64,000 bases of DNA from Microgenomates group bacterium (GCA_041659805.1 JBAZXP010000001.1:320589-384588); one strand, 5' to 3'; counted from the stretch's first letter, positions 18,728 to 47,285 are shown. Notes: generated by a model from the letters alone, not told the origin. Numbers and translations are program-made.

Positions 18728-20278
18728 TTAACTGACATAAGAAACGTCAATATCGTCTCCGTCAAAAACATACTCTACTTTTCTATCTTTGAATGTTGTT
18801 TGTAGATGAACAGGTCTACCCCAAAGCCGGAAGATGTGGGGTAATGTTTTTTTAATATAATCAGAATCCAGTTCTCTGCCTTCATAAAGATGTGAGATAT
18901 GTAACTCATGTTTACCGTAATATTCACAATCTGTTACCTCAAGATAAGGATACCCGGAATTATTCTGTGATTGGACTAAGACTTCTCTGATAATTTTCCA
19001 ATCCTTTTCTTTAACAACATATCTAATTTCTCCCTCAATTTCTTCTCTTTCATAAATATATGTGGCAGTCCTGTCACAGGCAATTTTGTCAAAATGGTTT
19101 CTTAAAAATCCTTGATCATCTTCTGTCTTCATAATACTCCTGATTTTTTTCCTACCAGGGCTATCTTCAATTGGACCATTATATTCAGGATAAATAGGTA
19201 GTCTTTCACTCTCTAGCCATCTTTTTTCTTCGTCTTCAATCTTTCCGTTATAGTAATCTTCTAAATAATCAAATATTGTCATCCCAACATAGTAAGGATT
19301 AATGTGTTTTGGATTTGGGTGCACTACTCCGGCATGAAGCGTCCACCATCCTTCCTGTTCGGCAGGTGAGATATGACCTCTTCTTCCCATCTCTCTCATA
19401 ATTCTTTTATGCCAAAAAGTAGCCCAGCCTTCGTTCATTATTTTCGTTCTCATTTGCGGACGGAAATAAATTGATTCAGAACGGACGATATCTAAAACGT
19501 CTTTTTGCCAGTCTTTTATAACGGGAGAATATTCACGGATGATATGAAGTAAATCCCTGTCAGGATGATAAGGGATAGTAATATTATCAGGTATTATTAA
19601 TTTTTCCTGAGTCTGTCCTATGTTGAATACATCATCATATTCTGTTTTGGGTTTTTCAGCCTTTCTTCTTTTTTCTTTGTCTTCTTCTCTCCATGCAGTA
19701 ATTTGCCTATCTTTCGGTAGACGGTAAAAATTTTTTTCGTCCGGATCAATGTGCTCTTCAATAGTCAGACATGAATCCAAATATCTTTCAACTTCGTTTT
19801 CACCAACTTCTAAACCATACCCTCTAATTCTTTCCGCACTTAAGGCAGCTGTTTGGGGCATATCTTTAGGCGTTGGTTTAAATACGTTGCTGTTGGTAAA
19901 AAAATCTACATGAGCTAAGACGTGAGCAAGAACCATTTTATTAGCAGCCGAATCATTATTATCTAATAAGTATCCTTGGGCGGGATTTGAGTTAATAACA
20001 ACCTCATAAATTTTAGAAAGTCCATGGTCGTACATGGTCTTCATTTGACGGTAGGCTCTGCCGTATGACCAGTGTGAAAAACGGACAGGTAAACCGTATG
20101 AGCCGATTTCGTATATTTTATGAGCGGGAACTAATTCAAAATGAGTGGGGCAAGGCTCTAGTCCAAATTCCTTGCTGATTTCCCAAATATGACCCAATGA
20201 TTGTTCTAAATCATCAACTTGATTTCCTTTACCTCCTGAATTAAAAAATTGATCAAATTCGTTGGCCATATTATGCAA
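18728..20278 (-). CDS. SpoVR/YcgB family protein
   Basis: 516 aa; ...HFELVPAHKIYEIGSYGLPVRFSHWSYGRAYRQMKTMYDHGLSKIYEVVINSNP...MVLAHVLAHVDFF... is typical of SpoVR. It is third in the prkA-yhbH-spoVR order. Confidence 0.85.
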   Translation of the reverse strand: MHNMANEFDQFFNSGGKGNQVDDLEQSLGHIWEISKEFGLEPCPTHFELVPAHKIYEIGSYGLPVRFSHWSYGRAYRQMKTMYDHGLSKIYEVVINSNPAQGYLLDNNDSAANKMVLAHVLAHVDFFTNSNVFKPTPKDMPQTAALSAERIRGYGLEVGENEVERYLDSCLTIEEHIDPDEKNFYRLPKDRQITAWREEDKEKRRKAEKPKTEYDDVFNIGQTQEKLIIPDNITIPYHPDRDLLHIIREYSPVIKDWQKDVLDIVRSESIYFRPQMRTKIMNEGWATFWHKRIMREMGRRGHISPAEQEGWWTLHAGVVHPNPKHINPYYVGMTIFDYLEDYYNGKIEDEEKRWLESERLPIYPEYNGPIEDSPGRKKIRSIMKTEDDQGFLRNHFDKIACDRTATYIYEREEIEGEIRYVVKEKDWKIIREVLVQSQNNSGYPYLEVTDCEYYGKHELHISHLYEGRELDSDYIKKTLPHIFRLWGRPVHLQTTFKDRKVEYVFDGDDIDVSYVS

Positions 20279-21422
20279 CTAAGGTTTTTGTGGGGTCAAA
20301 AACAGCCTGAAGATTAGGCCAAACATCTTCGCGTCTGCTAATAGTCCCTGCATAAAATCTTGGGTTTGAAATAGATCGTCGGTATTCACCGATTAGTCCG
20401 CCGGAAGTGTCATATCCTACCTGAATATAAGTGTACAAATTCACAGGAATTTTTAACATTTCTTGTACTGCTTTAGTTGATGCAGAAGTGTCAGAATCAC
20501 CCCAGTTATCACCATCTGAAAAATGCATAGGGTAAATATTGTATGAATCAACGGGGTAACGTTTTTTAATAATATCCAGTGCTGCAATATTAGCAGAAGA
20601 ACATTTAGTTCCGCCCCCGGCGCCCCTTTTGAAGAATTTTTCTTCATCTACTTCATAAGCCTCAGTATCATGAGCAAGAAAAACTATATCAACTTTTGGG
20701 TATTTAGTTCTTAAAAATTTCACAGCCCACCAACAAAAAGCCCGACTGGCATAAATTTCAAAGTCTCCCATTGATCCGGAAATATCCCTCATTGGGATAA
20801 TAACTGCCTTTGCCTGTTCTCTTTGCTTTTCCTGATATGTTCTAACACGGAAATCTTCCGGAATAATGTCTCCAATTTCTGCTTTGCCGCTTTCTGTCGC
20901 GTTTCTTGTGATATTTGCGTAAACTGTTCTTTGTAAATCTAAATTACTCGGTGTTTTTCTTTTTGCGACAGTATCAAAGGTTGGTTTTTCAGAGATTACA
21001 TCTTGATCCTTTTTGGGCAAGAGATGGGGGAGTCCCAAATCTTTAAAAATCATTGCTTCCAGCTCTGCAATACTTATTTCAGTTTCATAATATTCCACAC
21101 CCGGTTGGTCTCCCGCGCCTTGTCCGGATTGTGATTCAGAATCAATAGTATCTCCCTCCTTTTCTCCTCCTTCTCCGTTTCCAACTCCGCCCTCGTCATT
21201 TTTATAAATAATCCGTGGAAGATTAAGGGCGCGCATTGGAATTTTAACTATTCTTTTGCTGGTTGGATCCGCGGTGATGATACTCCCGTCACTAACAATG
21301 CTATCTAAATTGCCTTGGATTGCTTCTTTGACCTTTTCGTCATGACGGGCAGCATCTCTTGACCCTTGTTGGTTTAGGGACCAATCATGTTTAGAAATAG
21401 ATACAATATCAAACTCATTCAT
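20271..21422 (-). CDS. YeaH/YhbH family protein (DUF444, vWA-like)
   Basis: 383 aa; a Gly/Glu-rich linker followed by a vWA-like core. It overlaps spoVR by 8 nt and sits between prkA and spoVR. Confidence 0.8.
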   Translation of the reverse strand: MNEFDIVSISKHDWSLNQQGSRDAARHDEKVKEAIQGNLDSIVSDGSIITADPTSKRIVKIPMRALNLPRIIYKNDEGGVGNGEGGEKEGDTIDSESQSGQGAGDQPGVEYYETEISIAELEAMIFKDLGLPHLLPKKDQDVISEKPTFDTVAKRKTPSNLDLQRTVYANITRNATESGKAEIGDIIPEDFRVRTYQEKQREQAKAVIIPMRDISGSMGDFEIYASRAFCWWAVKFLRTKYPKVDIVFLAHDTEAYEVDEEKFFKRGAGGGTKCSSANIAALDIIKKRYPVDSYNIYPMHFSDGDNWGDSDTSASTKAVQEMLKIPVNLYTYIQVGYDTSGGLIGEYRRSISNPRFYAGTISRREDVWPNLQAVFDPTKTLVA

Positions 21423-21445: not shown

Positions 21446-23362
21446 TTACCTGTTAAGTAGAGTACCTACATATTTCAGTAGATCGTTTGCACAAGTGGCA
21501 CAGTATCCTTTTTCCATTAAAGTTGCAGCAACAGAATTAATTTTTGCCAGTTGTTCCGGATCAGGATTTCTTGTGTTAGTGGTAATTTTAATTACGTCTT
21601 TTAAATCAGCAAAAAGAGTTTTTTCGATTGCATCATTTAACCTGGTGTGTGATTTATAATCAAAACTTTTACCATCGGCTGATAAGTCACCCGCGGATCT
21701 TAAGATTTCATCTCTGAAAGCTTTTTTAGAACTCTCGTCAATTCCTATTTGAGTTTCAATCTTTCTCATTAGTTTTTCATCAGCTTGAACGTCATCTCCT
21801 GTTACCGGGTCTTTTAATTTTCTGCTGAAACTGTAAGCCCTGATATTATCTAAATAATTTTTGAATAAATTTTTAGCTGATTCTTCATATGAATAGACGA
21901 AAGCTCTTTGGACTTCAGTTTTCGCGGCTTCATCATAATCTTTTCTGGCTTCTGATACAAAAGAATGAAAAGCGTCTTTTTGTTCTTTTGTATATTCGCG
22001 AGTGTTGGTGTGCCAGGCCATTCCTTCGCGAAGAGCCCTTAAAACATTTGGAGGTGTTAGACACTCTGTGTCTTTTTTGATTATAGCCTGAGATAAACAG
22101 TCAATTACAAATCTGGGAGATACTCCTTCCATTCCTTCGTCCGGGCGTTTTTCCTGCAATTCTTTAATTTTTTCAGGTGTTAAATCCTCAACATATTCGC
22201 CGTTATATCCCCGGAGCTTACTCATTGCGCTAATTCCGTTTTCTTTAGCCAGTCTGCTTAAAACAGCAAAAGTTGCGGCGGTTTTTAAAGCTAATGGTGC
22301 CAGATGGACTTTTCCTTCACCTTGTCCGGCGGCGTCTGCAACTAATTTACTATAAATTTTTACTTCATCGGAAACTCTTAAGTTATAAGGAACCGGGATA
22401 ATAATAATCCTGTCTTGCATTGCTTCATTTTCTTTTTTCTTCATAAAGTTATCGTATTCAGTTTGGTTGGTATGAGCGACAATTACCAAATCAGCAGAGA
22501 TATCGGCAAAGCGGGGTGGTTTAATCACTCTGCTTTGGCTTAGATCTAAAGTTGCATAAAGAAATTGTGGTTCAATTTTTAGCATTTCGACAAATTCCAT
22601 AAGTCCCCGGTTGGCAATATTTAATTCCCCGTCAAAGCGGTAAGCCCTGGGGTCAGAGGATACTCCGTATTCTGAAAGTTTTGAGAAATCAACGCTTCCG
22701 ACAAGTTCAGTAATATCTTGTGACTTAGGATCAGAGGGTTTGAAATTTCCAATACCGACCCTTTCTGATTTTGAAAGTAAAACTCTGTGTACAATTTCAG
22801 CACTTCTCAAATCTGCAATATTTTTATTTTTATATTCATGTTTACATTGGGGACAAAGGTCTCCTTCAACTGTAATCCCATATTTTCCTAAAAATTGCTC
22901 ACGTAAAGTTTCAGGAATTAATTTTAAAGGATCCTCATGCATCGGACAATCTTTAATTCCATAAAGAGCTCCTTCAGGTGTCAGGCTATAGCTTTCCATG
23001 CCCGCTTTTAGAATCTCTACCAGGGATGTTTTTCCGCCTCCTGGAGGACCCATTAAAAGCAGGATCCTTCTTCCTATTTCCAAACCCTTAGCTCCGCCTT
23101 TCAAAACTTCCGTAAGTTGGTTAGTTGTTTTTTCAATTCCAAAAAGAGCGTGCTTCCCGCTGGTAAAAAATTCCGGTTGGGAAACAGTATCTAGAATATA
23201 TTGAAATGAGTTTCTTGCTAAACGTGGATTTTCTGTTATTTTATTAAAGTACTCACCGAGAGTCATTGTCTCGCTAGCCAATTTCGCCCTCTCGCTTGAG
23301 TAAGTTGCGAGTTCTCCAAACAAATCATTAGTACCTTCGTGTCTTCGGTCTATGTCTGTCAT
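21446..23362 (-). CDS. prkA: PrkA/YeaG family serine protein kinase (AAA+ N-domain)
   Basis: 638 aa; LLLMGPPGGGKTSLVEILK Walker A; overall PrkA architecture. Confidence 0.88.
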   Translation of the reverse strand: MTDIDRRHEGTNDLFGELATYSSERAKLASETMTLGEYFNKITENPRLARNSFQYILDTVSQPEFFTSGKHALFGIEKTTNQLTEVLKGGAKGLEIGRRILLLMGPPGGGKTSLVEILKAGMESYSLTPEGALYGIKDCPMHEDPLKLIPETLREQFLGKYGITVEGDLCPQCKHEYKNKNIADLRSAEIVHRVLLSKSERVGIGNFKPSDPKSQDITELVGSVDFSKLSEYGVSSDPRAYRFDGELNIANRGLMEFVEMLKIEPQFLYATLDLSQSRVIKPPRFADISADLVIVAHTNQTEYDNFMKKKENEAMQDRIIIIPVPYNLRVSDEVKIYSKLVADAAGQGEGKVHLAPLALKTAATFAVLSRLAKENGISAMSKLRGYNGEYVEDLTPEKIKELQEKRPDEGMEGVSPRFVIDCLSQAIIKKDTECLTPPNVLRALREGMAWHTNTREYTKEQKDAFHSFVSEARKDYDEAAKTEVQRAFVYSYEESAKNLFKNYLDNIRAYSFSRKLKDPVTGDDVQADEKLMRKIETQIGIDESSKKAFRDEILRSAGDLSADGKSFDYKSHTRLNDAIEKTLFADLKDVIKITTNTRNPDPEQLAKINSVAATLMEKGYCATCANDLLKYVGTLLNR

Positions 23363-23492: not shown

Positions 23493-23612
23493 GACTTGAT
23501 TAAATATCAAGAGAGATGGGTAGAGCTCTGGCTCGATGATCCATCCAGCAACCCCTCCACCAAAGGTGGATAAAGGTGCTAAGTCCAGCTCCTGAGTGAA
23601 ATCGAAGGAGAA
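23493..23612 (+). ncRNA. SAM-I (S-box) riboswitch in the metK 5' leader
   Basis: AUCAAGAGAG junction, GAUGG/CCAUC P2, GCAACC, UCCACC-AAA-GGUGGA P3, GGUGCUAAGUCCAGC, CUCCU/AGGAG P4. The 3' strand of P4/P1 contains the metK Shine-Dalgarno sequence AAGGAG. Confidence 0.6.
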
Positions 23613-23625
23613 AGATAAGGTAAAT

Positions 23626-24678
23626 ATGTTTTACAACACAAAAATTTATACAGTAGAAAGCGTAACCTCAGGACACCCGGATAAAATATGTGATGCTATA
23701 TCTGACGCAATTTTAGATGAATGTTTAAAACAAGATCCAACTTCCCGTGTTGCTGTCGAAAGTTTTGGAGGACATGGAGTTTTAATTGTTGGTGGGGAAG
23801 TCACAACAAAAGCAAAAGTTGATTACGAAAAAATTGCTGCCAAAGTTTATAAGGAAATAGGGCACTCAAATAAATTAAAAATAATTACCAATGTAGTCAC
23901 CCAATCACCTGATATAGCCCAAGGGGTTAATACCGGTGGGGCAGGGGATCAAGGTATTATGTATGGATACGCGACTACAGAAACAGATGAGTACTTACCA
24001 AAAGGAATTGTTTTAGTTCATAAATTAGTAAAGGGACTGGAAGATTTAAGAAAGAGTAAAAAAATTTCCTGGCTTAAGCCGGACGGAAAAGCGCAAGTTA
24101 CATTACAAAATGGCAAAGTCAGATCAGTTTTAGTTTCTACACAACATGATAAAAAAGTTTCATCTGAAGAAATTAGAGAAACATTAATTAAAAAATTAAT
24201 TAAACCTGTTATAGGGGATTTAACTGGGGTTGAAGTGTTGGTAAATCCCACAGGGAACTTTGTCTTAGGTGGGTTTGAGGCTGATACAGGGCTCACAGGA
24301 CGGAAATTAATGGTAGATACATATGGTGGTTTAATTCCTCATGGAGGAGGTTGCTTTTCGGGAAAAGATCCGACAAAAGTGGACAGGTCTGCAGCCTACA
24401 TGTGCAGATTTGTTGCCAAAAATATTGTTGCCAATAAACTTGCTAAGGAATGCTTGGTATCTGTGGCTTACGCCATAGGCCGCGCCGAACCATTAATGGT
24501 AGAAGTTATTGATGAAAAAGGAAGAAATATTACCAAACTTATAAAAGGAAAATTTGATTTCCGTCCCCTGGTTATTATAGAAAGACTGGATCTTCAAAAA
24601 CCAATTTACAGCCAAACTTCTTCCTACGGACATTTCGGAAAACCCAATCTCCCTTGGGAACAAATAATTAAATTTTAG
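23626..24678 (+). CDS. metK: S-adenosylmethionine synthetase (compact, about 350 aa)
   Basis: GHPDKICD, GGAGDQGIMYGYA and DTYGG...HGGGCFSGKDPTKVDRSAAY motifs. The start was moved to the ATG at 23626, downstream of the SD in the riboswitch. Confidence 0.92.
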   Translation: MFYNTKIYTVESVTSGHPDKICDAISDAILDECLKQDPTSRVAVESFGGHGVLIVGGEVTTKAKVDYEKIAAKVYKEIGHSNKLKIITNVVTQSPDIAQGVNTGGAGDQGIMYGYATTETDEYLPKGIVLVHKLVKGLEDLRKSKKISWLKPDGKAQVTLQNGKVRSVLVSTQHDKKVSSEEIRETLIKKLIKPVIGDLTGVEVLVNPTGNFVLGGFEADTGLTGRKLMVDTYGGLIPHGGGCFSGKDPTKVDRSAAYMCRFVAKNIVANKLAKECLVSVAYAIGRAEPLMVEVIDEKGRNITKLIKGKFDFRPLVIIERLDLQKPIYSQTSSYGHFGKPNLPWEQIIKF

Positions 24679-24733: not shown

Positions 24734-25939
24734 TTAATCGATTCTTGCCAATCTGATGCATTCTGTTAATTTGATCATCTTACATTTCTGTTCTGTAAAA
24801 TTTTTTCTGACGCCCTGGTAGCCTTGTAGTGCTATCTTTTTTGCAATTTTGGGGTGATCGATTAAGTACGTAATTTTTTCAGATAGCTCTTGTGGCTTAC
24901 CCGAAGTATAAAGAAAACCGTTTTGACCGTTTTTAATTTGCTCTATAATACCACCGCTTTTAGTACCAATGACGACTCTTTTTAAGAGCATACTCTCAAC
25001 GACAGTTCTACCGAAAGCCTCGTTTTTTGAACAAACTAAGGTGGCATTGGATTTTTTTATCAGAGAATAAGGATTATCTGTAAAATCTAAAATTGTAACC
25101 TTATCTTGGAGGTTATTGTTTTTGATAAAATTTTCTATTTTTTTCAAATAATTATTATTTATTGCCGGTCCGACTATACTTAAATGCACAGAGTTGTTAT
25201 CTATATATTTTAAAGCTTTTACTGCTTCAAGCTGTCCTTTGTTGGGTAAAATTGATCCAACGATAATTAATTTATATACTGAAGAATTTATTGCTACTTT
25301 TTTAGAAATTGTTTTACGATCAAGTGTAATATAGTTATAGAACAAAGATACTTTTGATTGAGGAATTATTTTACAAATTTCTTTTTGGACTGCTTTGGAA
25401 TTTACAAAAACAGCGGCTGAAAGATCATCGATTATTTTTAAAGTTTGTTTGAATCCCAGATCACATTTTAGAGAATGAGGTTTATTTGTAAACTCCCTAA
25501 TCGACCAGATATGTGGCTTTCCTGTTAGTTTGGCAGCGAGCGCACCCCAGGGAATAACTATTGTATTGGTATATACAATATCAGGATTAAACTTATTTAT
25601 TTGATTAGCTATTTCTATTACAGCTTGATTATTTGCTGCTGATACATGAGGCTGGATCTTGATTGGATTTTTTGGATCATGAGCCCACCATTCATAAGGA
25701 ATGAGAGTATATTTAACTCCTATTTGAGTCAATTTATTTTCTAAAAGTCCTTGGTGAGGAAGCACTACTTGGCAGATAACACCCCTCTTTTTAAGATTTG
25801 AAATTAAGTTTAAAAGTGACTTTTCAGCTCCTGCTAAATTAGCAGTGTGACTGATAAAAAGCACTTTAAAGGGGTCCTTTTTTGGGTTGATTGATAGGAA
25901 AGAAAATGCTTTGTTTGGGATGAAATTTAATAATTCCAT
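24734..25939 (-). CDS. Glycosyltransferase family 4 (GT-B, group 1)
   Basis: 401 aa; C-terminal ...VCSKNEAFGRTVVESMLLKRVVIGTKSGGIIEQI... is an EX7E-like GT1 motif. Confidence 0.8.
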   Translation of the reverse strand: MELLNFIPNKAFSFLSINPKKDPFKVLFISHTANLAGAEKSLLNLISNLKKRGVICQVVLPHQGLLENKLTQIGVKYTLIPYEWWAHDPKNPIKIQPHVSAANNQAVIEIANQINKFNPDIVYTNTIVIPWGALAAKLTGKPHIWSIREFTNKPHSLKCDLGFKQTLKIIDDLSAAVFVNSKAVQKEICKIIPQSKVSLFYNYITLDRKTISKKVAINSSVYKLIIVGSILPNKGQLEAVKALKYIDNNSVHLSIVGPAINNNYLKKIENFIKNNNLQDKVTILDFTDNPYSLIKKSNATLVCSKNEAFGRTVVESMLLKRVVIGTKSGGIIEQIKNGQNGFLYTSGKPQELSEKITYLIDHPKIAKKIALQGYQGVRKNFTEQKCKMIKLTECIRLARID

Positions 25940-26001: not shown

Positions 26002-28680
26002 TTAGAGGTCTAAATATTGGGAAATTGATTGTTTATATTCTGCTTGGAAAGCTTTATCCACTTTCTCTACTGGATTAGATCCCAGAAATTTTAATAATTC
26101 ATCTAATTTTTCTTGACGCTGTGTTTTATCAGAAATTTCTTTTAACACGACGATATCTTTCTCAATTTGAAAATATTTAAGCTTTATATCCAATGGTAGT
26201 TGCCAAAACAATAAGAACCCCCGTTCTGGAAAATCGATGCCGATTATTTTATAACAGGTTTTCATAAATGATTTTTCTAAATTTGAACGGATAGTTTCGG
26301 TTTGTTCCTTAACTTTTTGTACGTCTGATATTGCAAAAGGTTCTGATCCAATTTCATAATACATTTTTATTTTTGGTTCTGTGCCACTTGGTCTGACAGT
26401 AACTTTCATAGAGATTGTACCGGCAACTGGTTTGAAATTAAATTCCAAAATATTTTTGGAAATCATGTCTGTATCTGACAAGATAGGTAATCTTTTTTGA
26501 TAATCTTCAACATTTGAAACTTCAAATTCTCCAAAATTTTGAGGAGGATTATTTCTGAGTGAATCTTGCATTTGGTCTATTTTTGCTTTTCCTTCTGCTC
26601 CAGGAAGTCTAACTTCTGTTAAGTAATTTCTAAAGTATCCATATTTGGAATAAACATCATATAAATAATCAACCAAAGTTTTACCCTGTGGTTTTAATTC
26701 TGCTGCTAGTTCTGATAACCAAATAGCTGCAGTAGCTGCATCTTTATCTCTGGCATAGTTGCCTGCATTGTATCCATGGCTTTCTTCGCATCCAAAAATA
26801 AAGTAATCCATTTTTCCAGCACTTTCCAATTTATTCATTTCATGTGCTACATATTTATAGCCCACTAACAAATCACCTATCAGAGTCACATTATTTTTCT
26901 TGGAAATTTCAGAAATTAAATTTGTAGTGACCAAAGTTTTTATGGCAATTCCTTTTCCGTTAAGTTCTGCTGCACGTTTACTAATTGAATACTCTGCCAA
27001 AATTGCAGCAATTTCATTACCATTCAAAAACAACCACTCTCCGTCGTGCAAAACCATGATGCCGATCCGATCTGCATCAGGGTCGCTGTTTAATAAAATA
27101 TCTGCGCCGATTTCTTTAGCGAATTTTAAAGGAGTATCAAATGACTGTTCAACTTCCGGATTAGGAATGTTAAAAGTTATGTTTTCAAATTTTCCACTGG
27201 GGGAACTGGTTTTTTCATCAATTGCGACCTTAAAACCTAAATATTCAAGTACTTTTACAACTGATGTTGAACCACAACCATGCAGTGGGGTGTAAGCAAT
27301 TTTTATATTGCGTTTATCAGACAGTGAAACGCTTGCAGCTGCTTTAATATATTCCTGATCAACATCTTCACCAAGGGTTACAATTAATCCTTTGTCCTCT
27401 GCTTCTTGAAAATTCATCCCTTTAATTTCACCAACATTTTCAGTAACCTCTTTTACCAGTTCTTCATCATCAGGTGGAATAAGTTGGCCTCCATATTCAT
27501 CATAAATCTTCTTACCATTATGATCTGGTGGGTTGTGTGAAGCAGAGAACATATCACCACCAATGGCTTTTTTATAACGGATCGCAAAAGAAAGTTCCGG
27601 TGTTGTTCTAATACCATTAAAAAAATAGATTTTAATATCATTGGCAGCATAAACCTCTGCAGCAGCTTTTGCCAAGTCTTTAGAAGTTAAGTTTTTGACA
27701 GGGTTAGGTAGATTATCATCAAAATATTGATTGCTAAAAAACTGACGGATATCATAAGCCAGTACTATACCTCTATCTTTTGTGTCAGTGGGATGTTTTT
27801 TTAATAGGTACTGGGAGTGGCCTTGGGCTGATGATTTAATTGTCCAGGGGTTTATCCTGTTTGGTCCAATACCAACTTCACCTCTTCTGCCTCCAGTTCC
27901 AAAAGGAATAACCTGATAAAAAGAATCAAGTAAATAATCCCAGTATTTATTTTTAATCAAATGTTCAATTTGAGGAACATATTCTTTAAATTGAGGATCT
28001 GATAACCAGCTTTCTAAAGACTTAAGGGCTTGAGTTTGAAAAGTATCGCTGACTCCTAAAGTTTTAAATCCAATCTTTGCTTCTTCGAGTAAATTATTGT
28101 CTGTCATATTAAGCAGTTCTGTTATTTTATCATATTTTCCCTGGCGGAGAATTTCTATACCCTGCTCCCCTATTTTAATTAAAGTTGAAGGGTTTGATTC
28201 TAATGTACCTTTATCTTCATAAAAATCAACACTATCACCAAAATATTCTTTTGCTTCAGAAATTGTTTTAGCATAGGGAAATCCTTCTAAATTAGCACTG
28301 GGAGCAATTAGGGGCCCTGTTTCTTTTAATAAATTTAGTAGTTCATTATCATTTGGTATTCTGAAAGCCAGGGTATTGGTGCCTCTGTGAAGGTAGGCAA
28401 AATCATTAGATGAGACAGGTAAGACCACGCTAACCGGATTGGGCCAAATTGTTGCAAGATAGTTCATGGCTATTTGGTTCACAGTTACATCAAAGAGTTT
28501 TAAGTCATCAATGCTAGATATTAGAATAATAAATGGTTTTTCAGGGGCTCTTTTTCGTAACAAATAGACCTTTTCTACAGCCTCTTTATTTAAAGCCTGG
28601 GCAACAATTCCATACTGAGTATCAGTTGGAATTACAGCAATACCTCCTGATTTTAAAATTTGAATTATTTGAGTATCCAT
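26002..28680 (-). CDS. Fusion protein: N-terminal YrdC/TsaC (L-threonylcarbamoyladenylate synthase) domain, then alpha-D-phosphohexomutase (PGM/PMM), then a ~120-aa C-terminal tail
   Basis: N-terminus: PTDTQYG, RKRAPEKPFI, WPNPVSVVLP, PSANLEGFP, NPSTLIKI (YrdC). Middle: SASHNP, DPDADR, CEESHG, RPSGTEP (four-domain phosphohexomutase). Start set to Met27 (ATG at 28680) to avoid a divergent overlap with ppsA. Confidence 0.8.
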   Translation of the reverse strand: MDTQIIQILKSGGIAVIPTDTQYGIVAQALNKEAVEKVYLLRKRAPEKPFIILISSIDDLKLFDVTVNQIAMNYLATIWPNPVSVVLPVSSNDFAYLHRGTNTLAFRIPNDNELLNLLKETGPLIAPSANLEGFPYAKTISEAKEYFGDSVDFYEDKGTLESNPSTLIKIGEQGIEILRQGKYDKITELLNMTDNNLLEEAKIGFKTLGVSDTFQTQALKSLESWLSDPQFKEYVPQIEHLIKNKYWDYLLDSFYQVIPFGTGGRRGEVGIGPNRINPWTIKSSAQGHSQYLLKKHPTDTKDRGIVLAYDIRQFFSNQYFDDNLPNPVKNLTSKDLAKAAAEVYAANDIKIYFFNGIRTTPELSFAIRYKKAIGGDMFSASHNPPDHNGKKIYDEYGGQLIPPDDEELVKEVTENVGEIKGMNFQEAEDKGLIVTLGEDVDQEYIKAAASVSLSDKRNIKIAYTPLHGCGSTSVVKVLEYLGFKVAIDEKTSSPSGKFENITFNIPNPEVEQSFDTPLKFAKEIGADILLNSDPDADRIGIMVLHDGEWLFLNGNEIAAILAEYSISKRAAELNGKGIAIKTLVTTNLISEISKKNNVTLIGDLLVGYKYVAHEMNKLESAGKMDYFIFGCEESHGYNAGNYARDKDAATAAIWLSELAAELKPQGKTLVDYLYDVYSKYGYFRNYLTEVRLPGAEGKAKIDQMQDSLRNNPPQNFGEFEVSNVEDYQKRLPILSDTDMISKNILEFNFKPVAGTISMKVTVRPSGTEPKIKMYYEIGSEPFAISDVQKVKEQTETIRSNLEKSFMKTCYKIIGIDFPERGFLLFWQLPLDIKLKYFQIEKDIVVLKEISDKTQRQEKLDELLKFLGSNPVEKVDKAFQAEYKQSISQYLDL

Positions 28681-28734
28681 AACAGCCTTTATTATACCTT
28701 GATTTTTAAGTCTTCTAAATGAGACAATAAATTT

Positions 28735-31137
28735 ATGCAGCCTGCCTCTGAAGATCAAAAGAAGTTTATAGTTCCCTTAGAAAAAGTTGGTATTGAAGAT
28801 GTTCCAGAAGTAGGTGGTAAAAATGCCTCACTTGGTGAAATGATTCAATATTTGGTGCCTAAAGGGGTAAATGTTCCTGGAGGTTATGTGGTAACAGCTA
28901 CTGCTTACCGCTATTTTCTGGAATCTACTCCATTAAAAGAATTTATCAAAAAAACCCTGGATGGATTAAATACTCACAATATGGAAGAGTTGTCCAGAAA
29001 GGCAAAACAGGTAAGAGATGCAATTGTAACCACCGCGTTCCCCAAGGATTTAGAAGAGGAGATAGAACGTGCTCATCGTGAGATAGAAAAAAGATATGGT
29101 AGAGGTGCTGATTTTGCAGTCAGATCATCTGCCACAGCAGAGGATTTACCAGATGCTTCTTTTGCCGGAGAGCATGAAACATATCTTAATATCAGAGGTG
29201 TTTCTGAAATAGTCAAAGCTGTTAAACGTTCTATGGCGTCTCTTTTTACAGCCAGAGCAATTTCTTACAGAGTTGATAAAAAATTTGATCATTTTTCAAT
29301 TGCGTTATCTGTTGGTGTGCAAAGAATGGTTAGATCAGATCTTGGTTGTTCTGGTGTAATGTTTTCACTAGATACGGAATCAGGTTTTCCGGATGTGGTT
29401 ATTATTGATGGATCATGGGGACTTGGGGAGATGATTGTTCAAGGAGAGGTTACCCCAGATGAGTTTTTGGTTTACAAGCCGAGTTTAGGGAAAGATGGTT
29501 TTACTCCTATTATAGAAAAAAAGTATGGAGTTAAAAATCAAAAAATGATTTATTCAGACACCAGTCCAACAAAAATAGTTTCAACATCGGAAAAAGAAAG
29601 AGCAATTTTTGTTTTGTCTGACGCGGAAATTATTAAATTAGCTGAGTGGGGTGTGGAGGTGGAAAAACATTATTCCAAAAAACATGGCAAATGGACTCCA
29701 ATGGATATGGAATGGGCAAAAGACGGTAAAACTAATGAGTTATTTATGATTCAGGCCAGGCCAGAAACGATTCATGCCACGCGTGATTTTACTAAAGTAA
29801 AAGAATATATAAGGGAAGAAGAAGGAGTTGAAATTGTTAAAGGTGCTTCAGTTGGTGGAAAAATTGCTACAGGCAAGGCTAGGGTAATTTTAAATCCGGC
29901 TGATATTAATAAATTTAAAGAAGGTGAGGTTTTGGTAACAGTCATGACAGATCCAGACTGGGAACCAATCATGAAAATCGCTGCAGGAATTGTAACAGAT
30001 AAAGGTGGAAGAACTTCTCATGCAGCAATTGTTTCCCGAGAACTTGGTATTCCTTGTATTGTAGGTTCTCTTGAGGCAACAGAAAAAATAAAAACAGGGG
30101 ATGAGATAACAGTTGATACATCTGGCTCAGACGGAATTGTTTTTGAAGGTGTTTTGAAATTTAGAGTGGTGGAACATGATACAAAAACTTTACCAAAAAC
30201 AAAAACCCATATCATGATGAATATTGCTACCCCTGATACAGCATTTGAAAAATCATTTTTACCAAATGACGGTGTGGGGCTTGCTCGTGAAGAATTTATT
30301 ATTGCCTCAATTGGAATTCACCCTAACGCATTACTTGATTACCAAAAACTAACACCAAATTTAAAGCGAAAAATTGATGAAAAAACATTTGGTTATCCTG
30401 ACAAGGTTAAATTTTATGTAGATAATTTGGCTTATGGAATTGCAAAAATTGCAGCGGCCTTTAATCCCAAACCAGTGATTGTCCGTTTTTCAGATTTTAA
30501 AACGAATGAATATGGAACTTTACTTGGTGGTGAAGATTATGAACCAAAAGAAGAAAATCCTATGATTGGCTGGCGTGGTGCTTCTCGTTATTATCATCCT
30601 GAATTTACCAAGGCTTTTGAGTTGGAAGTTATTGCCATGAAAAAGGTTCGAGAAGAAATGGGACTAAAAAATGTCATGGCAATGATTCCGTTTTGCAGAA
30701 CAGTTGAAGAAGGAAAAAAAGTTGTTGATTTGATAGAAAAATATGGATTGAAACAATCTGCTGACTTTAAAATTTATGTAATGTGTGAGATTCCAGCAAA
30801 TGTTATCTTAGCTGAGGAATTTTTGGAAGTGTTTGATGGGATGTCAATTGGGTCAAATGATTTGACTCAACTTACTTTGGGTATAGATAGAGACGGGAAT
30901 GAAATGATTAAATCAATTAGTAATGAAAAAGATGAGGCAGTCAAAAAACTTATCAGTGAGGTTATAAAGAAATGTAAAGCCAAAAATAAATATATCGGTA
31001 TTTGCGGACAAGCACCAAGCGATTATCCTGATTTTGCTCAATTTCTAGTTAAAGAGGGGATTGAGAGCATGTCCTTAAATCCTGATTCAGTCATAAATAC
31101 TATTGTCAAAATCCACGAACAGGAAAATAAGAATTAA
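28735..31137 (+). CDS. ppsA: Phosphoenolpyruvate synthase (pyruvate, water dikinase)
   Basis: 800 aa; GGRTSHAAIVSRELGIPCIVG phospho-His motif; the N-terminal ATP-grasp and C-terminal PEP-utilising domains have PpsA length. Confidence 0.88.
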   Translation: MQPASEDQKKFIVPLEKVGIEDVPEVGGKNASLGEMIQYLVPKGVNVPGGYVVTATAYRYFLESTPLKEFIKKTLDGLNTHNMEELSRKAKQVRDAIVTTAFPKDLEEEIERAHREIEKRYGRGADFAVRSSATAEDLPDASFAGEHETYLNIRGVSEIVKAVKRSMASLFTARAISYRVDKKFDHFSIALSVGVQRMVRSDLGCSGVMFSLDTESGFPDVVIIDGSWGLGEMIVQGEVTPDEFLVYKPSLGKDGFTPIIEKKYGVKNQKMIYSDTSPTKIVSTSEKERAIFVLSDAEIIKLAEWGVEVEKHYSKKHGKWTPMDMEWAKDGKTNELFMIQARPETIHATRDFTKVKEYIREEEGVEIVKGASVGGKIATGKARVILNPADINKFKEGEVLVTVMTDPDWEPIMKIAAGIVTDKGGRTSHAAIVSRELGIPCIVGSLEATEKIKTGDEITVDTSGSDGIVFEGVLKFRVVEHDTKTLPKTKTHIMMNIATPDTAFEKSFLPNDGVGLAREEFIIASIGIHPNALLDYQKLTPNLKRKIDEKTFGYPDKVKFYVDNLAYGIAKIAAAFNPKPVIVRFSDFKTNEYGTLLGGEDYEPKEENPMIGWRGASRYYHPEFTKAFELEVIAMKKVREEMGLKNVMAMIPFCRTVEEGKKVVDLIEKYGLKQSADFKIYVMCEIPANVILAEEFLEVFDGMSIGSNDLTQLTLGIDRDGNEMIKSISNEKDEAVKKLISEVIKKCKAKNKYIGICGQAPSDYPDFAQFLVKEGIESMSLNPDSVINTIVKIHEQENKN

Positions 31138-31172
31138 TAATTCAAAATTTATAATGTATAATTCAAACTGAC

Positions 31173-32363
31173 ATGCGGGTTGATGACGTCTCTTTAAAAA
31201 TAATTCCTGATTCCCGGGGTAAAGATACCTTAGAAGCAACTTTAAAATCCGGAGATATTTCCGTTTCTTCCTCAGTACCATCAGGTAAAAGTACTGGTAT
31301 AAATGAAGTTTTTGTTTTAGATCCTGATACGGCACTTTTAAAATTCGAGGATGATTTAAAAGAAGGTATTTTACTTCACGACTTTGAATCACTTGAACAA
31401 TTTGATAATTATTTAATCAACTGTGATAGCACAGATAATAAAAAAGATTTAGGTGGAAATATGATGTTGGCTTTAAGTATTGGTTTTACAAAATTACTAG
31501 CAAAATCACAGAATAAGGAAATCTATCAGCTAATTGCTGAAATTGGTAATAATAAAATAGAAAAATTACCGCTATGTTTTTTTAATGTAATAAATGGGGG
31601 ATTACATGCTAAAGATTCTTTGCCTTTTCAGGAATATATGTTTGTCCCTCAAAATGTTTTACCTTCTGAAAATTTAAACTCTGTAATGTTACTTTTAAAA
31701 GTTTTGGGAGATACTATTCAAAAAAAATATGAACATTTGAGAATGGGGGATGAGGGAGGATATGAGGTACCAGAGAAAGATCCTGAAATTGGATTAAAGA
31801 TTCTGACTGAAGCAATAAAAGAAAGCAATCAGGAAAAAAGCAAGATAAGCTTGGACGTTGCTGCTTCATCATTTTTTAAAGATGGATTATATTTAGTTGG
31901 AGACAATGTGCAAACTAAAGACCAGCTATTAGATCTTTATCAAATACTAAATACAAAATACCAAATACTATCTATAGAAGATCCATTTGATGAAAAAGAT
32001 GAAGATGGGTTTCAAAAAATAGTAGAAAAAATAGGTAATCAGGTTTGGATTGTGGGTGATGATTTAACTACTACTAATACTGAACGCATTAAAATAATGG
32101 AAGATAAAAAAGCCTGTAATGCTGTCATCATAAAACCAAATCAAATTGGAACTGTGAGCGAGGCTTTGGAAGCTGTAAGACTTGCACAGACGTTTGGTTG
32201 GAAAGTGATTGTGTCACACCGATCAGGTGAAACAATGGATACATTTATTGCAGATTTAGCAGTGGGAGTTGGAGCAGATGGGTTAAAATCAGGATGCCCA
32301 TTACAAAAAGAACGTTTGGTTAAATATCAGAGATTAATTGAAATAGAAAAACAATTGGCTTAA
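31173..32363 (+). CDS. eno: Enolase (compact, divergent N-terminus)
   Basis: QEYMFVP, SIEDPFDEKDEDGF, VGDDLTTTN, IKPNQIGTVSE and SHRSGETMDTFIADLAV motifs all present; 396 aa. Confidence 0.88.
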   Translation: MRVDDVSLKIIPDSRGKDTLEATLKSGDISVSSSVPSGKSTGINEVFVLDPDTALLKFEDDLKEGILLHDFESLEQFDNYLINCDSTDNKKDLGGNMMLALSIGFTKLLAKSQNKEIYQLIAEIGNNKIEKLPLCFFNVINGGLHAKDSLPFQEYMFVPQNVLPSENLNSVMLLLKVLGDTIQKKYEHLRMGDEGGYEVPEKDPEIGLKILTEAIKESNQEKSKISLDVAASSFFKDGLYLVGDNVQTKDQLLDLYQILNTKYQILSIEDPFDEKDEDGFQKIVEKIGNQVWIVGDDLTTTNTERIKIMEDKKACNAVIIKPNQIGTVSEALEAVRLAQTFGWKVIVSHRSGETMDTFIADLAVGVGADGLKSGCPLQKERLVKYQRLIEIEKQLA

Positions 32364-35283: not shown

Positions 35284-36138
35284 TTAAGTATATTTTTTGA
35301 AGAGGTCGGAGAGATCTCTGACAGCGGATTGTTCTATTAAAGGCTTATCTTTTATTTGTGGAATTTGGGATTCATAAGAAGGTTTCTTTTCTTCATATAA
35401 AATACCAAGGGCTATTTTTTTAGGGCCCCATTCTAAAGATTTATTTATTGCTTCTGCTTTATTTGTAACATCATGGCTTTCATCTAATTTATAGGTATTT
35501 GCCTGATAAAATTGATGTGTGTATTCTTTATTAAAAGTCACACATGGTTGCAAGATATCAACCAAACTCAGACCATCATGATTATTGGCTTTAATAATAA
35601 GTTCTGTGAGTCCTGGAATATCACCAGCATATCCGCGGGCAACAAAGGTGGCACCACTGGCAATTGCTAAAGTCATAGGGGAGATGGGGTAATCAGGGTT
35701 TCCGTCTGGTGTAGATTTTGTGACAAAGCCATGGGGAGAAGTAGGGGAAGTTTGCCCGACAGTTAATCCATAAATTCCATTATCATGCAAAATAATAGTT
35801 AAATTATGATTTCTTCTGCAACTATGGACAAAGTGATTTCCGCCTTCTGCCATTGAATCTCCGTCTCCGGTAAAGACAAAAACATTAAGTTTATGATTGG
35901 CAGATTTAATGCCGGTGGCAACTGGTAACGGGCGTCCATGCAATCCTTCAACTGCAGTTATTTTTGTAAAATTGCAGATATGTCCGTGACACCCAATTCC
36001 GGCAACCATCACTGAGTTGGTATTATCCCAGCCTTCCTTGACTGCAGCATTTTTAAATGCGCCCCAAATTGCAAAATCTCCACAACCAGGACACCAATTT
36101 GGTTGACATGGTGTAATTAAATCATTTAAGTTTGTCAT
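35284..36138 (-). CDS. korB: 2-oxoacid:ferredoxin oxidoreductase beta subunit (TPP-binding)
   Basis: 284 aa; CPGCGDF...GIGCHG...FTGDGD are KorB/PorB TPP motifs. Confidence 0.88.
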   Translation of the reverse strand: MTNLNDLITPCQPNWCPGCGDFAIWGAFKNAAVKEGWDNTNSVMVAGIGCHGHICNFTKITAVEGLHGRPLPVATGIKSANHKLNVFVFTGDGDSMAEGGNHFVHSCRRNHNLTIILHDNGIYGLTVGQTSPTSPHGFVTKSTPDGNPDYPISPMTLAIASGATFVARGYAGDIPGLTELIIKANNHDGLSLVDILQPCVTFNKEYTHQFYQANTYKLDESHDVTNKAEAINKSLEWGPKKIALGILYEEKKPSYESQIPQIKDKPLIEQSAVRDLSDLFKKYT

Positions 36139-37850
36139 TTTAATAATTCCTTTATTTTTTCAATTACTTCTTCCGGGTAAATTGGGCGCCCATCATATTT
36201 TAATAATTTATTAGATATTTCTATACCGGTTTTTTCTCTGATAACCTCAGCTAATTGTCCGCTGAAATTACATTCAATATCAAGAAGGATTTTTGCGTTA
36301 TCCAAAATTTCTTTAGCGTCAAGTGGAAAAGGACTCATGTGGGTAATGTGTAAAAAATTAACATTTTCAAAACTTTTAATTGCTTGTAAAATAGCTCCTT
36401 TATTTGATCCCCACGAAATGATTGTTAAGTCTGCTTCTTTGGGACCAAACATTTGTTGTTTTGGCATTTCCTTCAAAAATGAATCATTTTTGCTCATTCT
36501 TTTTTGCATAGAAGCGATTCTTGCATCACTACTTTCGGTTGAATATCCATACTCATCATGTTCATCAGAATTACCAATAAAGAAATTACCAGATCCTGGA
36601 ATTGATCTAAGTGAAACACCGTCAGGGGAGTCAGCAAATCTTTTATAATCATTAATTTTCTCAGTTGAAAATTTTCCCCTGTTAACCTCTTCTTTATTTT
36701 GTGCAAAGATGGGGTAACTTTGGTCTCCCTCACAAATATTTTTATCAACAATTAAAATCACTGGTGTTTGAAATTTATCTGCTATATCAAAAGCCTGTCT
36801 TGTTAAATTAAAGGCTTCCTCTGAGTCGCCTGCCGCAAGTACAATTCTGGGAAAATCTCCTTGATGGGCATGTAACATCATTTTTAAATCTCCTTGATCG
36901 CTCCAGGTAGGCAGGCCGGTGGCAGGCCCTGGTCTCATGCCTTCAATAATAACTAAAGGAGTTTCAATATTAGCAGCCAGCCCATATCCTTCCGCCATTA
37001 AACAAAATCCACCTCCAGAAGTTGCAACCATAGACCTACAACCAGCAAACGATGCACCAATTGCCATATTAATGGCAGCAATTTCATCTTCTGGTTGTTT
37101 ATAAATAAACCTGTATTTTTGTTGGTTTTCTGCTAACACTGTTAAAATATTGGAAGTTGGAGTCATGGGATAAATGGCAGCATATTGTAAACCGGAAGCG
37201 ATGGCGCTTAAGGCAATTGCTTCATTTCCGTTAACAATCATTTTTGCAGTGATATTTTCTAAGGGATTTAATGTAGATAAGATTTTTTCTTTGAAAGTTT
37301 GTTGGACAAAATCAAAACCCGCTTTGGCTGCTTTGATATTTTGTTCTGCAATCTCTCCAGTGAATGACTCATTGATTAAATTATTTAAAATTTCTAAATC
37401 ACCACCCAATAGAGCAATAGCAGAACCAAGAGCTACAGTATTCAACATAATCTTGCTTCCATCTGCTTTGATTGCGAGTTCTGATAGGGGAACCGGTAAA
37501 AGGTTAACTTCTTTTGATATTTTTGAAGTATCAAGTCCATCAGAACCGTCAAATAAAACAAATGAGTTAGGAATTAATTCCTCAAGATGTTTATCAATAG
37601 TTTCTTGGTTTAGGGCAATTAAAAAATTAGTGTGTTTTTGGGGAGCAGTAACTGGATCTTTATCAATGCATATTTGCATGATGTTGTGACCGCCACGAAT
37701 GAGTGATGGATATTCAGTATAGGTATAAATATTGTAACCTGAGCGAGTGGCAACTTTTGCGAGCATTAAACCTGCTGATTTTATTCCCTGTCCTGCTTGT
37801 CCGCCTATTTTAAGACTGAATATTTGCATTTGTGAATCTAAATTTACCAT
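36135..37850 (-). CDS. korA: 2-oxoacid:ferredoxin oxidoreductase alpha subunit with a fused N-terminal gamma domain
   Basis: 571 aa; the N-terminal IGGQAGQGIKSAGLMLA is a PorG-like domain and the remainder is the alpha (pyruvate-flavodoxin oxidoreductase domain I/II) region. Confidence 0.88.
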   Translation of the reverse strand: MVNLDSQMQIFSLKIGGQAGQGIKSAGLMLAKVATRSGYNIYTYTEYPSLIRGGHNIMQICIDKDPVTAPQKHTNFLIALNQETIDKHLEELIPNSFVLFDGSDGLDTSKISKEVNLLPVPLSELAIKADGSKIMLNTVALGSAIALLGGDLEILNNLINESFTGEIAEQNIKAAKAGFDFVQQTFKEKILSTLNPLENITAKMIVNGNEAIALSAIASGLQYAAIYPMTPTSNILTVLAENQQKYRFIYKQPEDEIAAINMAIGASFAGCRSMVATSGGGFCLMAEGYGLAANIETPLVIIEGMRPGPATGLPTWSDQGDLKMMLHAHQGDFPRIVLAAGDSEEAFNLTRQAFDIADKFQTPVILIVDKNICEGDQSYPIFAQNKEEVNRGKFSTEKINDYKRFADSPDGVSLRSIPGSGNFFIGNSDEHDEYGYSTESSDARIASMQKRMSKNDSFLKEMPKQQMFGPKEADLTIISWGSNKGAILQAIKSFENVNFLHITHMSPFPLDAKEILDNAKILLDIECNFSGQLAEVIREKTGIEISNKLLKYDGRPIYPEEVIEKIKELLK

Positions 37851-46337: not shown

Positions 46338-47285
46338 ATGAAAAAAGTTTTAGTAATCTTAGGTCCAACTGCTACCGGAAAAACTGATTTGGCATTGGAT
46401 TTGGCCAAAAAATTAAACGGAGAATTAGTTTCCTGTGATTCTAGACAAGTTTATAAGGGATTGGATATTGGAACGGGAAAAATGCCGGGAAAAGATTTAG
46501 GATTTAAGAAATATGATTTAAGATGGGAAATCGATGGCACAGATGTTTGGATGTACGATGTGGCTGATTTTAAGACACAATATACAGTTAAGGATTACGT
46601 TAATCAGGCAGAAAAAGTAATTGAAGATATTATTAATAGAAACAAATTACCGATTATTGTCGGAGGAACAGGATTATATCTAAAGGCGCTTTTGGAAGGC
46701 TTACCGAATTTGCAGATTCCTGTTGATGAAAAATTAAGAATGGAATTAGAGAAACTTCCATTAAATGAGTTACAGGAAAAATTGCAATCACTCTCCCCTG
46801 TCATTTGGAAAAAACTAAATGAATCTGATCAAAAAAATCCGCGCCGTCTTCTCCGCTCTATCGAGCTTATACTTATGAATCCATACATCAAAACAACTCA
46901 AAAGAAAGTGGGAATAAAAGCTAAATATGAGATATTAAAAATAGGATTGACTGCCCCACGGGAAATTTTAAAAAAACGGATTTTTGACCGTTTGTTATCC
47001 AGATTTAAAAATGGGCTAGTGAAAGAATCGATAACTTTAAATAAAAAAGGGTTAACATTTAAGAGGATGAAAAGCTTAGGTTTAGAATACGGGATGTTGG
47101 CAGAACTTTTACAGAAAAAAATAAGCGAAGAACAATTTTTACAAATTCTTAATACCAAAATTTATCAATATTCCAAACGTCAGCTGACATGGTTTAAAAC
47201 TGATAAGAATATTCTATGGTTTGATATAACAGGGAAAAATTCGCGCCAAGAGCTGGAAAAACAGATTCAAAAATGGTATTATTGA
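46338..47285 (+). CDS. miaA: tRNA dimethylallyltransferase
   Basis: 315 aa; ILGPTATGKT P-loop, ...SCDSRQVYKGLDIGTGK... Confidence 0.9.
   Translation: MKKVLVILGPTATGKTDLALDLAKKLNGELVSCDSRQVYKGLDIGTGKMPGKDLGFKKYDLRWEIDGTDVWMYDVADFKTQYTVKDYVNQAEKVIEDIINRNKLPIIVGGTGLYLKALLEGLPNLQIPVDEKLRMELEKLPLNELQEKLQSLSPVIWKKLNESDQKNPRRLLRSIELILMNPYIKTTQKKVGIKAKYEILKIGLTAPREILKKRIFDRLLSRFKNGLVKESITLNKKGLTFKRMKSLGLEYGMLAELLQKKISEEQFLQILNTKIYQYSKRQLTWFKTDKNILWFDITGKNSRQELEKQIQKWYY
46875..46888. repeat. Near-palindrome ATGAATCCATACAT inside miaA (copy 3 of 3, one mismatch)
   Basis: 24 of 25 nt are identical to the recA-upstream copy including flanks (cttATG[A/T]ATCCATACATcaaaaca). It encodes MNPYIKT within MiaA. 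Confidence 0.5.

Follow-up and report, generated by a model that had tools for sequence, protein, structure and literature searches.

In a 64,000-nucleotide stretch from a Daviesbacteria-like, groundwater-type Microgenomates group bacterium with a tiny genome (GCA_041659805.1, JBAZXP010000001.1:320589-384588), hereafter the window, we found a single gene whose 892-amino-acid product joins a threonylcarbamoyl-AMP (TC-AMP) synthase domain of the TsaC/YrdC type to a complete phosphohexomutase. We consider it quite probable that the product is a bifunctional polypeptide in which two enzymes work independently, and that it reflects an incidental merger of operon neighbors rather than a new functional link. 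The N-terminal domain would be the ordinary type-1 TsaC of the organism, converting threonine, bicarbonate, and ATP to TC-AMP for N6-threonylcarbamoyladenosine at tRNA position 37 (t6A37), with TsaD, TsaB, and TsaE encoded elsewhere. The C-terminal 701 residues would use phospho-Ser381 and Mg2+ to shift the phosphate of a sugar phosphate between C1 and C6 (or C5) by way of a bisphosphate intermediate, presumably without channelling of substrates between the two halves. The mutase probably supplies the synthesis of nucleotide sugars that go into surface glycans; a glycosyltransferase family 4 (GT4) gene lies downstream. The domain architecture is previously undescribed for the universal TsaC/Sua5 family: as the initial annotation had supposed, no account of a fusion between YrdC/TsaC and a phosphohexomutase turned up in the searchable literature, in which Sua5, HypF, TobZ, and TsaN represent the known fusions. 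Nothing relevant surfaced there on gene fusions or phosphoglucomutases of the candidate phyla radiation (CPR) or on leaderless translation in Patescibacteria.

Reality of the fusion gene

The gene is one uninterrupted open reading frame (ORF) on the minus strand, opening at 28758 (TTG) or 28680 (ATG) and running to a TAA stop codon (Table 1). The ATG at 28680 yields the 892-residue product and equals the gene call in the NCBI, JGI, ENA, and Logan records (P0001; L086 and L087). The initial annotation had described a single ORF at 26002-28680 joining a TsaC/YrdC domain to a complete phosphohexomutase. The ORF itself, Pfam, NCBIfam, and the motifs bore this out, and every motif that it quoted was found in its place; only the strand has to be corrected to minus, and the junction, put near 28080, actually lies at about 28108-28137. 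Annotation pipelines label the fused protein by one half only, P0001 being [quoted passage not shown] at NCBI and "phosphoglucomutase" at JGI.

Just two fused sequences are known, and indel errors are possible in metagenome-assembled genomes, so that one might suspect a frame made continuous by assembly or sequencing error or a gene heading, after a recent disabling mutation, to become a pseudogene. However, the identical 892-residue protein is found on at least four contigs of separate origin, among them a 1.13-Mb NCBI contig, an 837-kb ENA contig (L086), and a 20-kb Logan contig (L087). A second fused gene (P0002/L001), from another sequencing run, encodes a protein with 82% amino acid identity and preserves both the uninterrupted frame and the linker. 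The ratio of nonsynonymous to synonymous divergence (dN/dS, Nei-Gojobori) between the two genes was 0.12 for the TsaC domain, 0.26 for the linker (computed over residues 182 to 202), 0.05 for the mutase core, and 0.06 for the tail, while dS was about 1.6 or saturated. Internal stops are absent and all catalytic motifs are intact. Because the same gene occurs in independent NCBI, ENA, and Logan assemblies and the L001 gene, 18% diverged in protein, is under purifying selection in every segment, linker included, both a sequencing error and a gene in decay can be ruled out, their probability being negligible. These data also dispose of the concern, raised in the initial annotation, that a sequencing error might be hiding two separate genes. 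Purifying selection acts on both halves of the fusion.

The TsaC half and the linker

The Pfam profile PF01300 (Sua5_yciO_yrdC) matched residues 7 to 181 over profile positions 1 to 178 of 178 (E = 2.4e-42, 144.9 bits; cut-off, 25.1), and the NCBIfam equivalog TIGR00057 (L-threonylcarbamoyladenylate synthase) scored 141.5 bits, above its curated cut-off of 123.2. The motifs PTDTQYG (18 to 24), LRKRAPEKP (41 to 49), WPNP (79 to 82), PSAN (127 to 130), and PSTLI (164 to 168) were all present. Sequence matches in the PDB were Methanothermobacter thermautotrophicus MTH1692 (1jcu, 1e-21), Sua5 (9d3h, 6f87, and 2eqa), and Escherichia coli TsaC (2mx1 and 1hru).

The catalytic tetrad of TsaC, K-x-R...S-x-N (K50, R52, S139, and N141 of the E. 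coli enzyme), is essential and binds ATP (PMC6004061, PMC9654439). Here the Lys position is occupied by Arg (R42-K43-R44), so that a strict K-x-R filter is not satisfied; R44, S128, and N130 are present. Across the 122 closest TsaC homologs, 120 of them stand-alone, R44, K48, R107, S128, N130, S165, T166, and R179 are invariant; R at position 42 is shared by 91 of them, the other 31 having K. Judged from this alignment, Arg at position 42 is a conservative variant, normal for the lineage, and of the conserved catalytic residues, whose loss the initial annotation had considered, the other three are kept. We also considered R-K-R as a mark of a degenerate or repurposed domain and rejected it, R being the majority state in stand-alone relatives. 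The fused domain is 71 to 76% identical to the stand-alone TsaCs at the same locus in sister lineages (L004, L005, L096, and L097 among them). Its mean distance to outgroups, 0.47 to 0.48, falls within the 0.44 to 0.52 of unfused orthologs, indicating no acceleration. The suggestion that the YrdC domain had been repurposed as a nucleotide-binding module is thus unsupported, since the domain is a close TsaC ortholog with unchanged signature residues and no rate shift.

The domain ends in a conserved LRQG, followed by the 10-residue linker KYDKITELLN, of which the stretch KYDKITELL is identical in L001. Stand-alone TsaCs carry variable tails of 4 to 16 residues beyond LRQG, and the long form, e.g., VFQINDLLKTLPDVLE*, is similar to KYDKITELL. 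The linker is probably a truncated native C-terminal tail of TsaC.

The mutase half

Pfam recognized PGM_PMM_I (E = 7.5e-26), PGM_PMM_II (6e-16), and PGM_PMM_III (1.7e-15) in the mutase half; PGM_PMM_IV was weak (18.9 bits; cut-off, 23.1). The phosphoserine loop SASHNP (379 to 384, with S381), the metal loop DPDADR (533 to 538), the sugar loop CEESHG (631 to 636), and the phosphate loop RPSGTEP (763 to 769) are all invariant or nearly so across 87 family members. None of the NCBIfam equivalogs for the specificity classes GlmM, phosphoglucomutase (PGM), phosphomannomutase (PMM)/PGM, and PgmG reached its cut-off, the best being archaeal GlmM (TIGR03990), with 111.8 bits against 439.

An AlphaFold2 (AF2) model of the mutase alone was confident (predicted local distance difference test [pLDDT], 91; predicted template modeling score [pTM], 0.91), with an N-terminal helical extension (helices 2-14, 21-36, 38-52, and 56-61; pLDDT about 88 to 93), a four-domain core, and a C-terminal helical tail (pLDDT above 90). 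Foldseek retrieved whole PGM/PMM structures (9DU5, 3OLP, 1WQA, 1TUO, and 5BMP), with TM scores of 0.7 to 0.82 when normalized to the target and identities of 16 to 21%. About 170 terminal residues of the mutase have no counterpart in solved PGM structures, and the TM scores normalized to the query were 0.5 to 0.59.

These terminal parts are characteristic of a family of roughly 700-residue mutases of Patescibacteria. The N-terminal extension (65 residues) is specific to that family and kept in all 86 stand-alone relatives, as are the motifs FLLFWQLPL and FLGS.P of the C-terminal tail. The tail, which had been described as about 120 residues of unknown function, is therefore a conserved part of the stand-alone mutases and not an addition made by the fusion. 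Residues 192 to 892 (701 amino acids) align with the stand-alone proteins over their full length at 61 to 72% identity; by sequence, this half is a typical family member.

The locus in sister lineages

In the window the order is eno and ppsA on one side and, divergent from them, the fusion gene followed by the GT4 gene, metK (opposite strand), prkA-DUF444-spoVR, and rpsI-rplM-rplQ. The ppsA-eno block (28735..32363, plus strand) is conserved to the left of tsaC in every member of the clade (the same in L001, L004, L005, and L096), and in L001 and L097 metK comes immediately after the mutase. In five unfused relatives (L004, L005, L096, L097, and L098), ppsA is likewise divergent from tsaC, and a separate short PMM/PGM gene begins 10 to 16 bp after tsaC; compared with the window, TsaC is 71 to 76% and PpsA 84 to 88% identical. 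The short mutases are of a 471-residue type in L004, L096, L097, and L098 (mutual identity, 84 to 93%) and of a 465-residue type in L005 (identity to the longer type, 37%). Both are only about 21 to 24% identical to the 700-residue mutase and non-orthologous to it. The clearest pair is L097 (acyP-tsaC-PMM471-metK) and L001 (acyP-tsaC::mutase700-metK), which differ in the mutase slot only. In the more distant L002 (mutase, 72%, and TsaC, 48% identical), tsaC is followed by a 135-bp spacer, the 700-residue mutase, and pgi. The slot after tsaC looks like an exchangeable cassette bordering a variable island. Sister lineages between them show this one locus in the unfused, the differently filled, and the fused state.

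An 89-residue acylphosphatase gene (L001, 1042-1311; L097, 1569-1838) overlaps the start of tsaC via TAATG in both L001, which is fused, and L097, which is not. The order acylphosphatase-tsaC is that of the acylphosphatase and YrdC domains in HypF; the window lacks this gene. Between tsaC and rpsI, gene content otherwise varies strongly and includes GT4, APH, GrpB, and lipase-like genes and the prkA operon. The fused L086 and the unfused L096 (tsaC plus PMM471; TsaC, 73 to 75% identical) both come from ENA sample ERZ27249449, which is suited to a direct expression comparison of the two states because both genomes co-occur there.

Distribution of the fusion

Among the best 120 matches of the full-length query, PF01300 and PGM domains occurred together only in P0001 and P0002; the remaining 118 were stand-alone mutases of 660 to 723 residues, 61 to 72% identical and aligned from about query residue 195. 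The best 120 matches of the TsaC domain were all stand-alone proteins of 177 to 216 residues, at most 76% identical and mostly from Candidatus Daviesbacteria, in a listing that omitted the fused P0001 and P0002 themselves and from which other fusions cannot be excluded. At 80 Patescibacteria reference tsaC loci, located with the TsaC profile in genomes other than the window's own, a mutase lay directly downstream in 1 (Daviesbacteria STC_54), a divergent short mutase lay upstream in another single case (1/80), and the 700-residue mutase was within 5 kb of tsaC in none. Eight metagenome loci of the 700-residue mutase were neither fused nor within 4 kb of a tsaC, and tsaC-mutase adjacency was also absent in L003. 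No natural fusion of TsaC to PMM471 was met: a synthetic TsaC+PMM471 query, designed to rank any such protein first, matched only stand-alone mutases of 470 to 491 residues. The architecture is restricted to a single shallow lineage, and we saw no recurrence across independent lineages.

In these small genomes, TsaC itself appears to fuse readily with whatever adjoins it. Among the 150 closest TsaC representatives from an exhaustive HMMER search, 10 were 343 to 767 residues long. Eight of these candidate fusions (P0268, P0269, P0276, P0299, P0306, P0316, P0373, and P0380) had identified partners, namely, TruB (in both orders), the His_Phos_1/histidine-phosphatase superfamily (two cases), AA_kinase, Wzy_C, a ceramidase, and a GyrB fragment; P0320 and P0382 have about 240 N-terminal residues without a Pfam match. 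The fused protein is lacking among the representatives, presumably being clustered under a mutase representative, and the search thus gives no count of fusions between TsaC and the 700-residue mutase.

Scanning the window revealed no second YrdC-family gene, confirming that it holds no separate tsaC, and among ORFs of at least 150 residues we saw no tsaB, tsaD, or tsaE. The sole other gene for modification of tRNA position 37 seen in the window is miaA (isopentenyl pyrophosphate transferase, N6-isopentenyladenosine at position 37; 46338-47285, plus strand), 18 kb away.

Translation signals

The promoter-like sequence preceding the fusion gene has a -10 box ending 10 nucleotides (nt) ahead of the ATG at 28680, and this predicted position implies a leaderless or near-leaderless transcript. 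Near-consensus TATAAT boxes ending 4 to 12 nt ahead of the ATG precede 15 of 63 window genes, versus 5 and 3 at control positions; they include those of the fusion gene and the GT4 gene (Table 1) and those upstream of 31173, 33498, 41115, 51657, and 53941. Motifs resembling a Shine-Dalgarno (SD) sequence were found in 15 of 50 window genes. Together, these patterns suggest that leaderless or near-leaderless mRNAs are widespread in this Microgenomates genome. A possible benefit of the fusion is that, in such an SD-poor regime, joining two genes in frame could guarantee translation of the former second cistron.

Origin of the fusion and alternative explanations

The fusion would have arisen once, in a small Daviesbacteria-like clade in which tsaC is always the leading gene of a closely spaced pair with a phosphohexomutase. 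We infer a single event because the linker is identical in both fused genes, and an origin from neighbors because tsaC and a mutase are adjacent but unfused in relatives, Met192 corresponds to the start of the stand-alone mutases, and the linker resembles a native TsaC tail. A deletion or a cassette replacement may have removed the last codons of tsaC, its stop codon, and the spacer, bringing the frame directly onto the mutase's own ATG. Two other routes were considered. Conversion of a former ATGA stop/start overlap by a 1-nt indel explains the junction no better than a simple deletion does, and the other frames stop right after LRQG. Spread of the mutase cassette by recombination with a breakpoint inside tsaC is not supported, since we found no breakpoint signal there and no segment-specific affinity between the window gene and L001.

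Some observations weigh against a single, incidental merger. A neighbor-joining tree of the TsaC core does not pair the two fused genes, the four lineages being roughly equidistant, and a single origin is thus not cleanly demonstrated. The slot after tsaC holds three non-orthologous phosphohexomutases while PpsA remains 84 to 88% identical, which makes selection for the pairing possible, and the fusion, having survived while synonymous divergence reached saturation, is at least not deleterious. A real functional link between the two activities, of which the fusion and the tsaC-mutase pairing would both be expressions, could take several forms: TsaC might serve as a module sensing ATP, threonine, or bicarbonate, translation fidelity might be coordinated with envelope sugars, or an adenylate might be transferred to a sugar phosphate as in TobZ or HypF. 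The three kinds of mutase found directly after tsaC in close genomes, with L002 as a fourth pairing, the maintenance of the fusion under purifying selection, the acylphosphatase gene overlapping tsaC in HypF order in L001 and L097, and the cooperation of YrdC-like domains with their fused partners in HypF and TobZ (PMC9654439) would all fit such a link. Against it, adjacency was missing from 79 of the 80 reference loci, from all eight metagenome mutase loci, and from L003; the fusion is known from a single lineage, the TsaC domain, closely orthologous to stand-alone TsaCs, scores above the equivalog cut-off with no residue change or rate shift, there is no Kae1-like transferase domain, and TsaC relatives are joined to many unrelated partners. 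We therefore regard functional coupling, in these forms taken jointly, as quite unlikely. To our knowledge, no chemistry or pathway links TC-AMP and sugar phosphates. Were the coupling true, it would connect sugar metabolism of the envelope with a universal tRNA modification; that the Daviesbacteria-like clade harbors a so far undescribed partnership of TC-AMP synthase and sugar-phosphate mutases, acting through allosteric control of envelope sugars or through TobZ-like (threonyl)carbamoyl transfer to a sugar phosphate, seems very improbable. The physical link of t6A synthesis to sugar-phosphate metabolism proposed in the initial annotation is unsupported for the same reasons, namely, two related sequences, 79 of 80 loci without adjacency, and many other TsaC partners.

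It is also unlikely, if somewhat less strained, that the one ORF gives rise to two proteins, the 701-residue mutase being made mainly separately from an internal start at Met192 or from an internal promoter, next to some full-length fusion. Met192 lies exactly at the ancestral mutase start in both fused genes and is a possible internal initiation site, leaderless initiation is apparently frequent in the organism, and a weak promoter-like sequence, TAGAAA-17-TATGAT (28157-28129), lies upstream of it. However, this sequence scores only 9 of 12, a level at which 15 sites were found versus 12.4 expected in shuffles, i.e., without enrichment, and its -10 box ends 21 nt ahead of the ATG instead of the 4 to 12 nt typical here. 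Neither an SD-like motif nor a convincing promoter was found upstream of Met192, and the retention of a single codon at linker-level constraint is not statistically meaningful. Even then, TsaC would still be produced only within the full-length fusion. Two enzymes merged by chance of position thus remain our preferred reading. The locus offers a clean natural example of fusion genesis in very compact, SD-poor, possibly leaderless-translating genomes and cautions that a rare fusion is not to be read as evidence of functional linkage.

Comparison with known systems

The N-terminal half shares with type-1 TsaC (E. coli 1HRU/2MX1 and M. thermautotrophicus MTH1692, 1JCU) a single YrdC fold of about 180 residues, PTDT.YG, S-x-N, the tetrad Arg, and the lack of a SUA5 domain; it differs in the 701-residue enzyme at its C terminus and in the Arg at the first tetrad position, a residue shared with about 75% of its nearest stand-alone relatives among Patescibacteria TsaCs. 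Sua5, the type-2 enzyme (Pyrococcus abyssi 6F87 and Sulfolobus tokodaii 2EQA), likewise consists of a TsaC domain, a C-terminal linker, and a further domain (PMC6004061). In Sua5 that domain, SUA5, is Rossmann-like, and activity requires the linker, which acts as a gate to the active site, whereas here a 10-residue linker leads to a complete, unrelated enzyme. Pfam found no SUA5 domain in the 892-residue protein, in which the residues beyond 181 are linker and then mutase.

Additions at the C terminus are tolerated by TsaC in Sua5, HypF, and TsaN (PMC6004061, PMC9654439, PMC10484737). In HypF, TobZ/NodU, and TsaN (TsaD-TsaC-SUA5-TcdA), as in the present protein, a YrdC-like domain is fused to other catalytic domains (PMC9654439, PMC10321239, PMC10484737). 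There, however, the partner is a Kae1/TsaD-like transferase that uses the adenylate made by the YrdC domain, in a functional and ancient association, whereas the chemistry of the partner described here is unrelated and the fusion is limited to one shallow lineage. No Kae1/TsaD-family or carbamoyltransferase domain was matched by Pfam in the 892-residue protein. The candidate fusions of related small genomes (TsaC-TruB, TsaC-His_Phos_1, TsaC-AA_kinase, Wzy_C-TsaC, and ceramidase-TsaC), with TsaC 42 to 55% identical, resemble it in carrying a complete unrelated partner at either end; they are sporadic, and a phosphohexomutase is the partner in none.

The stand-alone "phospho-sugar mutases" of Patescibacteria, about 700 residues long (e.g., P0003, P0012, and P0017 Candidatus Daviesbacteria), have the N-terminal extension, the C-terminal tail, the four loops, and the start Met in common with the mutase half. 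They begin at the Met that equals residue 192 of the fusion, which is kept in L001 and is read as the ancestral mutase start, and most do not adjoin tsaC. Characterized phosphohexomutases (Thermococcus kodakarensis 9DU5, Pyrococcus horikoshii 1WQA, Salmonella PGM 3OLP/2FUV, and Pseudomonas aeruginosa PMM/PGM 1PCJ) share the four-domain fold and the catalytic loops; they are only 16 to 21% identical, and the mutase described here has about 170 extra helical terminal residues.

Features and neighboring genes

Table 1. Coordinates of the fusion gene, its parts, and its neighbors (window numbering; short mutases are numbered on their own contigs)
Feature	Coordinates	Strand	Basis or remark
TsaC domain (type-1 YrdC/TsaC), residues 1-181, ending in LRQG	28138..28680	-	Pfam, NCBIfam, homologs
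Linker KYDKITELLN, residues 182-191	28108..28137	-	Alignment
Junction-spanning sequence of fusion protein, KYDKITELLNMTDNN		-	Translation
In-frame ATG, Met192	28105..28107	-	Aligned with start codon of P0003 and other ~700-residue mutases
Helical N-terminal extension of mutase, residues 193-256	27913..28104	-	Family alignment, AF2
Four-domain alpha-D-phosphohexomutase core, residues 257-783	26332..27912	-	Pfam, motifs, AF2, Foldseek
Helical C-terminal tail, residues 784-892	26005..26331	-	Family alignment, AF2, dN/dS 0.06
Fusion-gene stop codon TAA	26002..26004	-	ORF reading
Promoter-like TTTAGA-17-TATAAT of fusion gene	28691..28719	-	Sequence pattern
ppsA	28735-31137	+	Pfam/NCBIfam; divergent from fusion gene
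eno	31173-32363	+	Pfam/NCBIfam; after ppsA
GT4-family glycosyltransferase	24734..25939	-	62 bp downstream of fusion gene
Strong promoter-like TTGACT-17-TATAAT of GT4 gene	25974-25946	-	Sequence pattern
metK	23596..24678	+	TIGR01034, 436 bits; convergent, conserved right flank
Window mutase, for comparison with short mutases	26005-28107	-
Short mutase, L004	6612-8027
Short mutase, L005	6581-7978
Short mutase, L096	4105-5520
Short mutase, L097	2447-3862
Short mutase, L098	1840-3255

Between metK and rpsI, the window, part of a reduced genome, carries on the minus strand a triad of prkA (21446-23362), a DUF444/yeaH-like gene (20271-21422), and spoVR (18728-20278), which is absent from the matching segment of the relatives examined. 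Farther away, a 954-residue ORF (37852-40716, minus strand) is another unusual fusion, combining CoA_binding, Succ_CoA_lig, and ATP-grasp_5 domains (ADP-forming acyl-CoA synthetase) with FAD_binding_6 and NAD_binding_1 (ferredoxin-reductase-like); it adjoins genes for pyruvate:ferredoxin oxidoreductase subunits (36135-37850 and 35284-36138).

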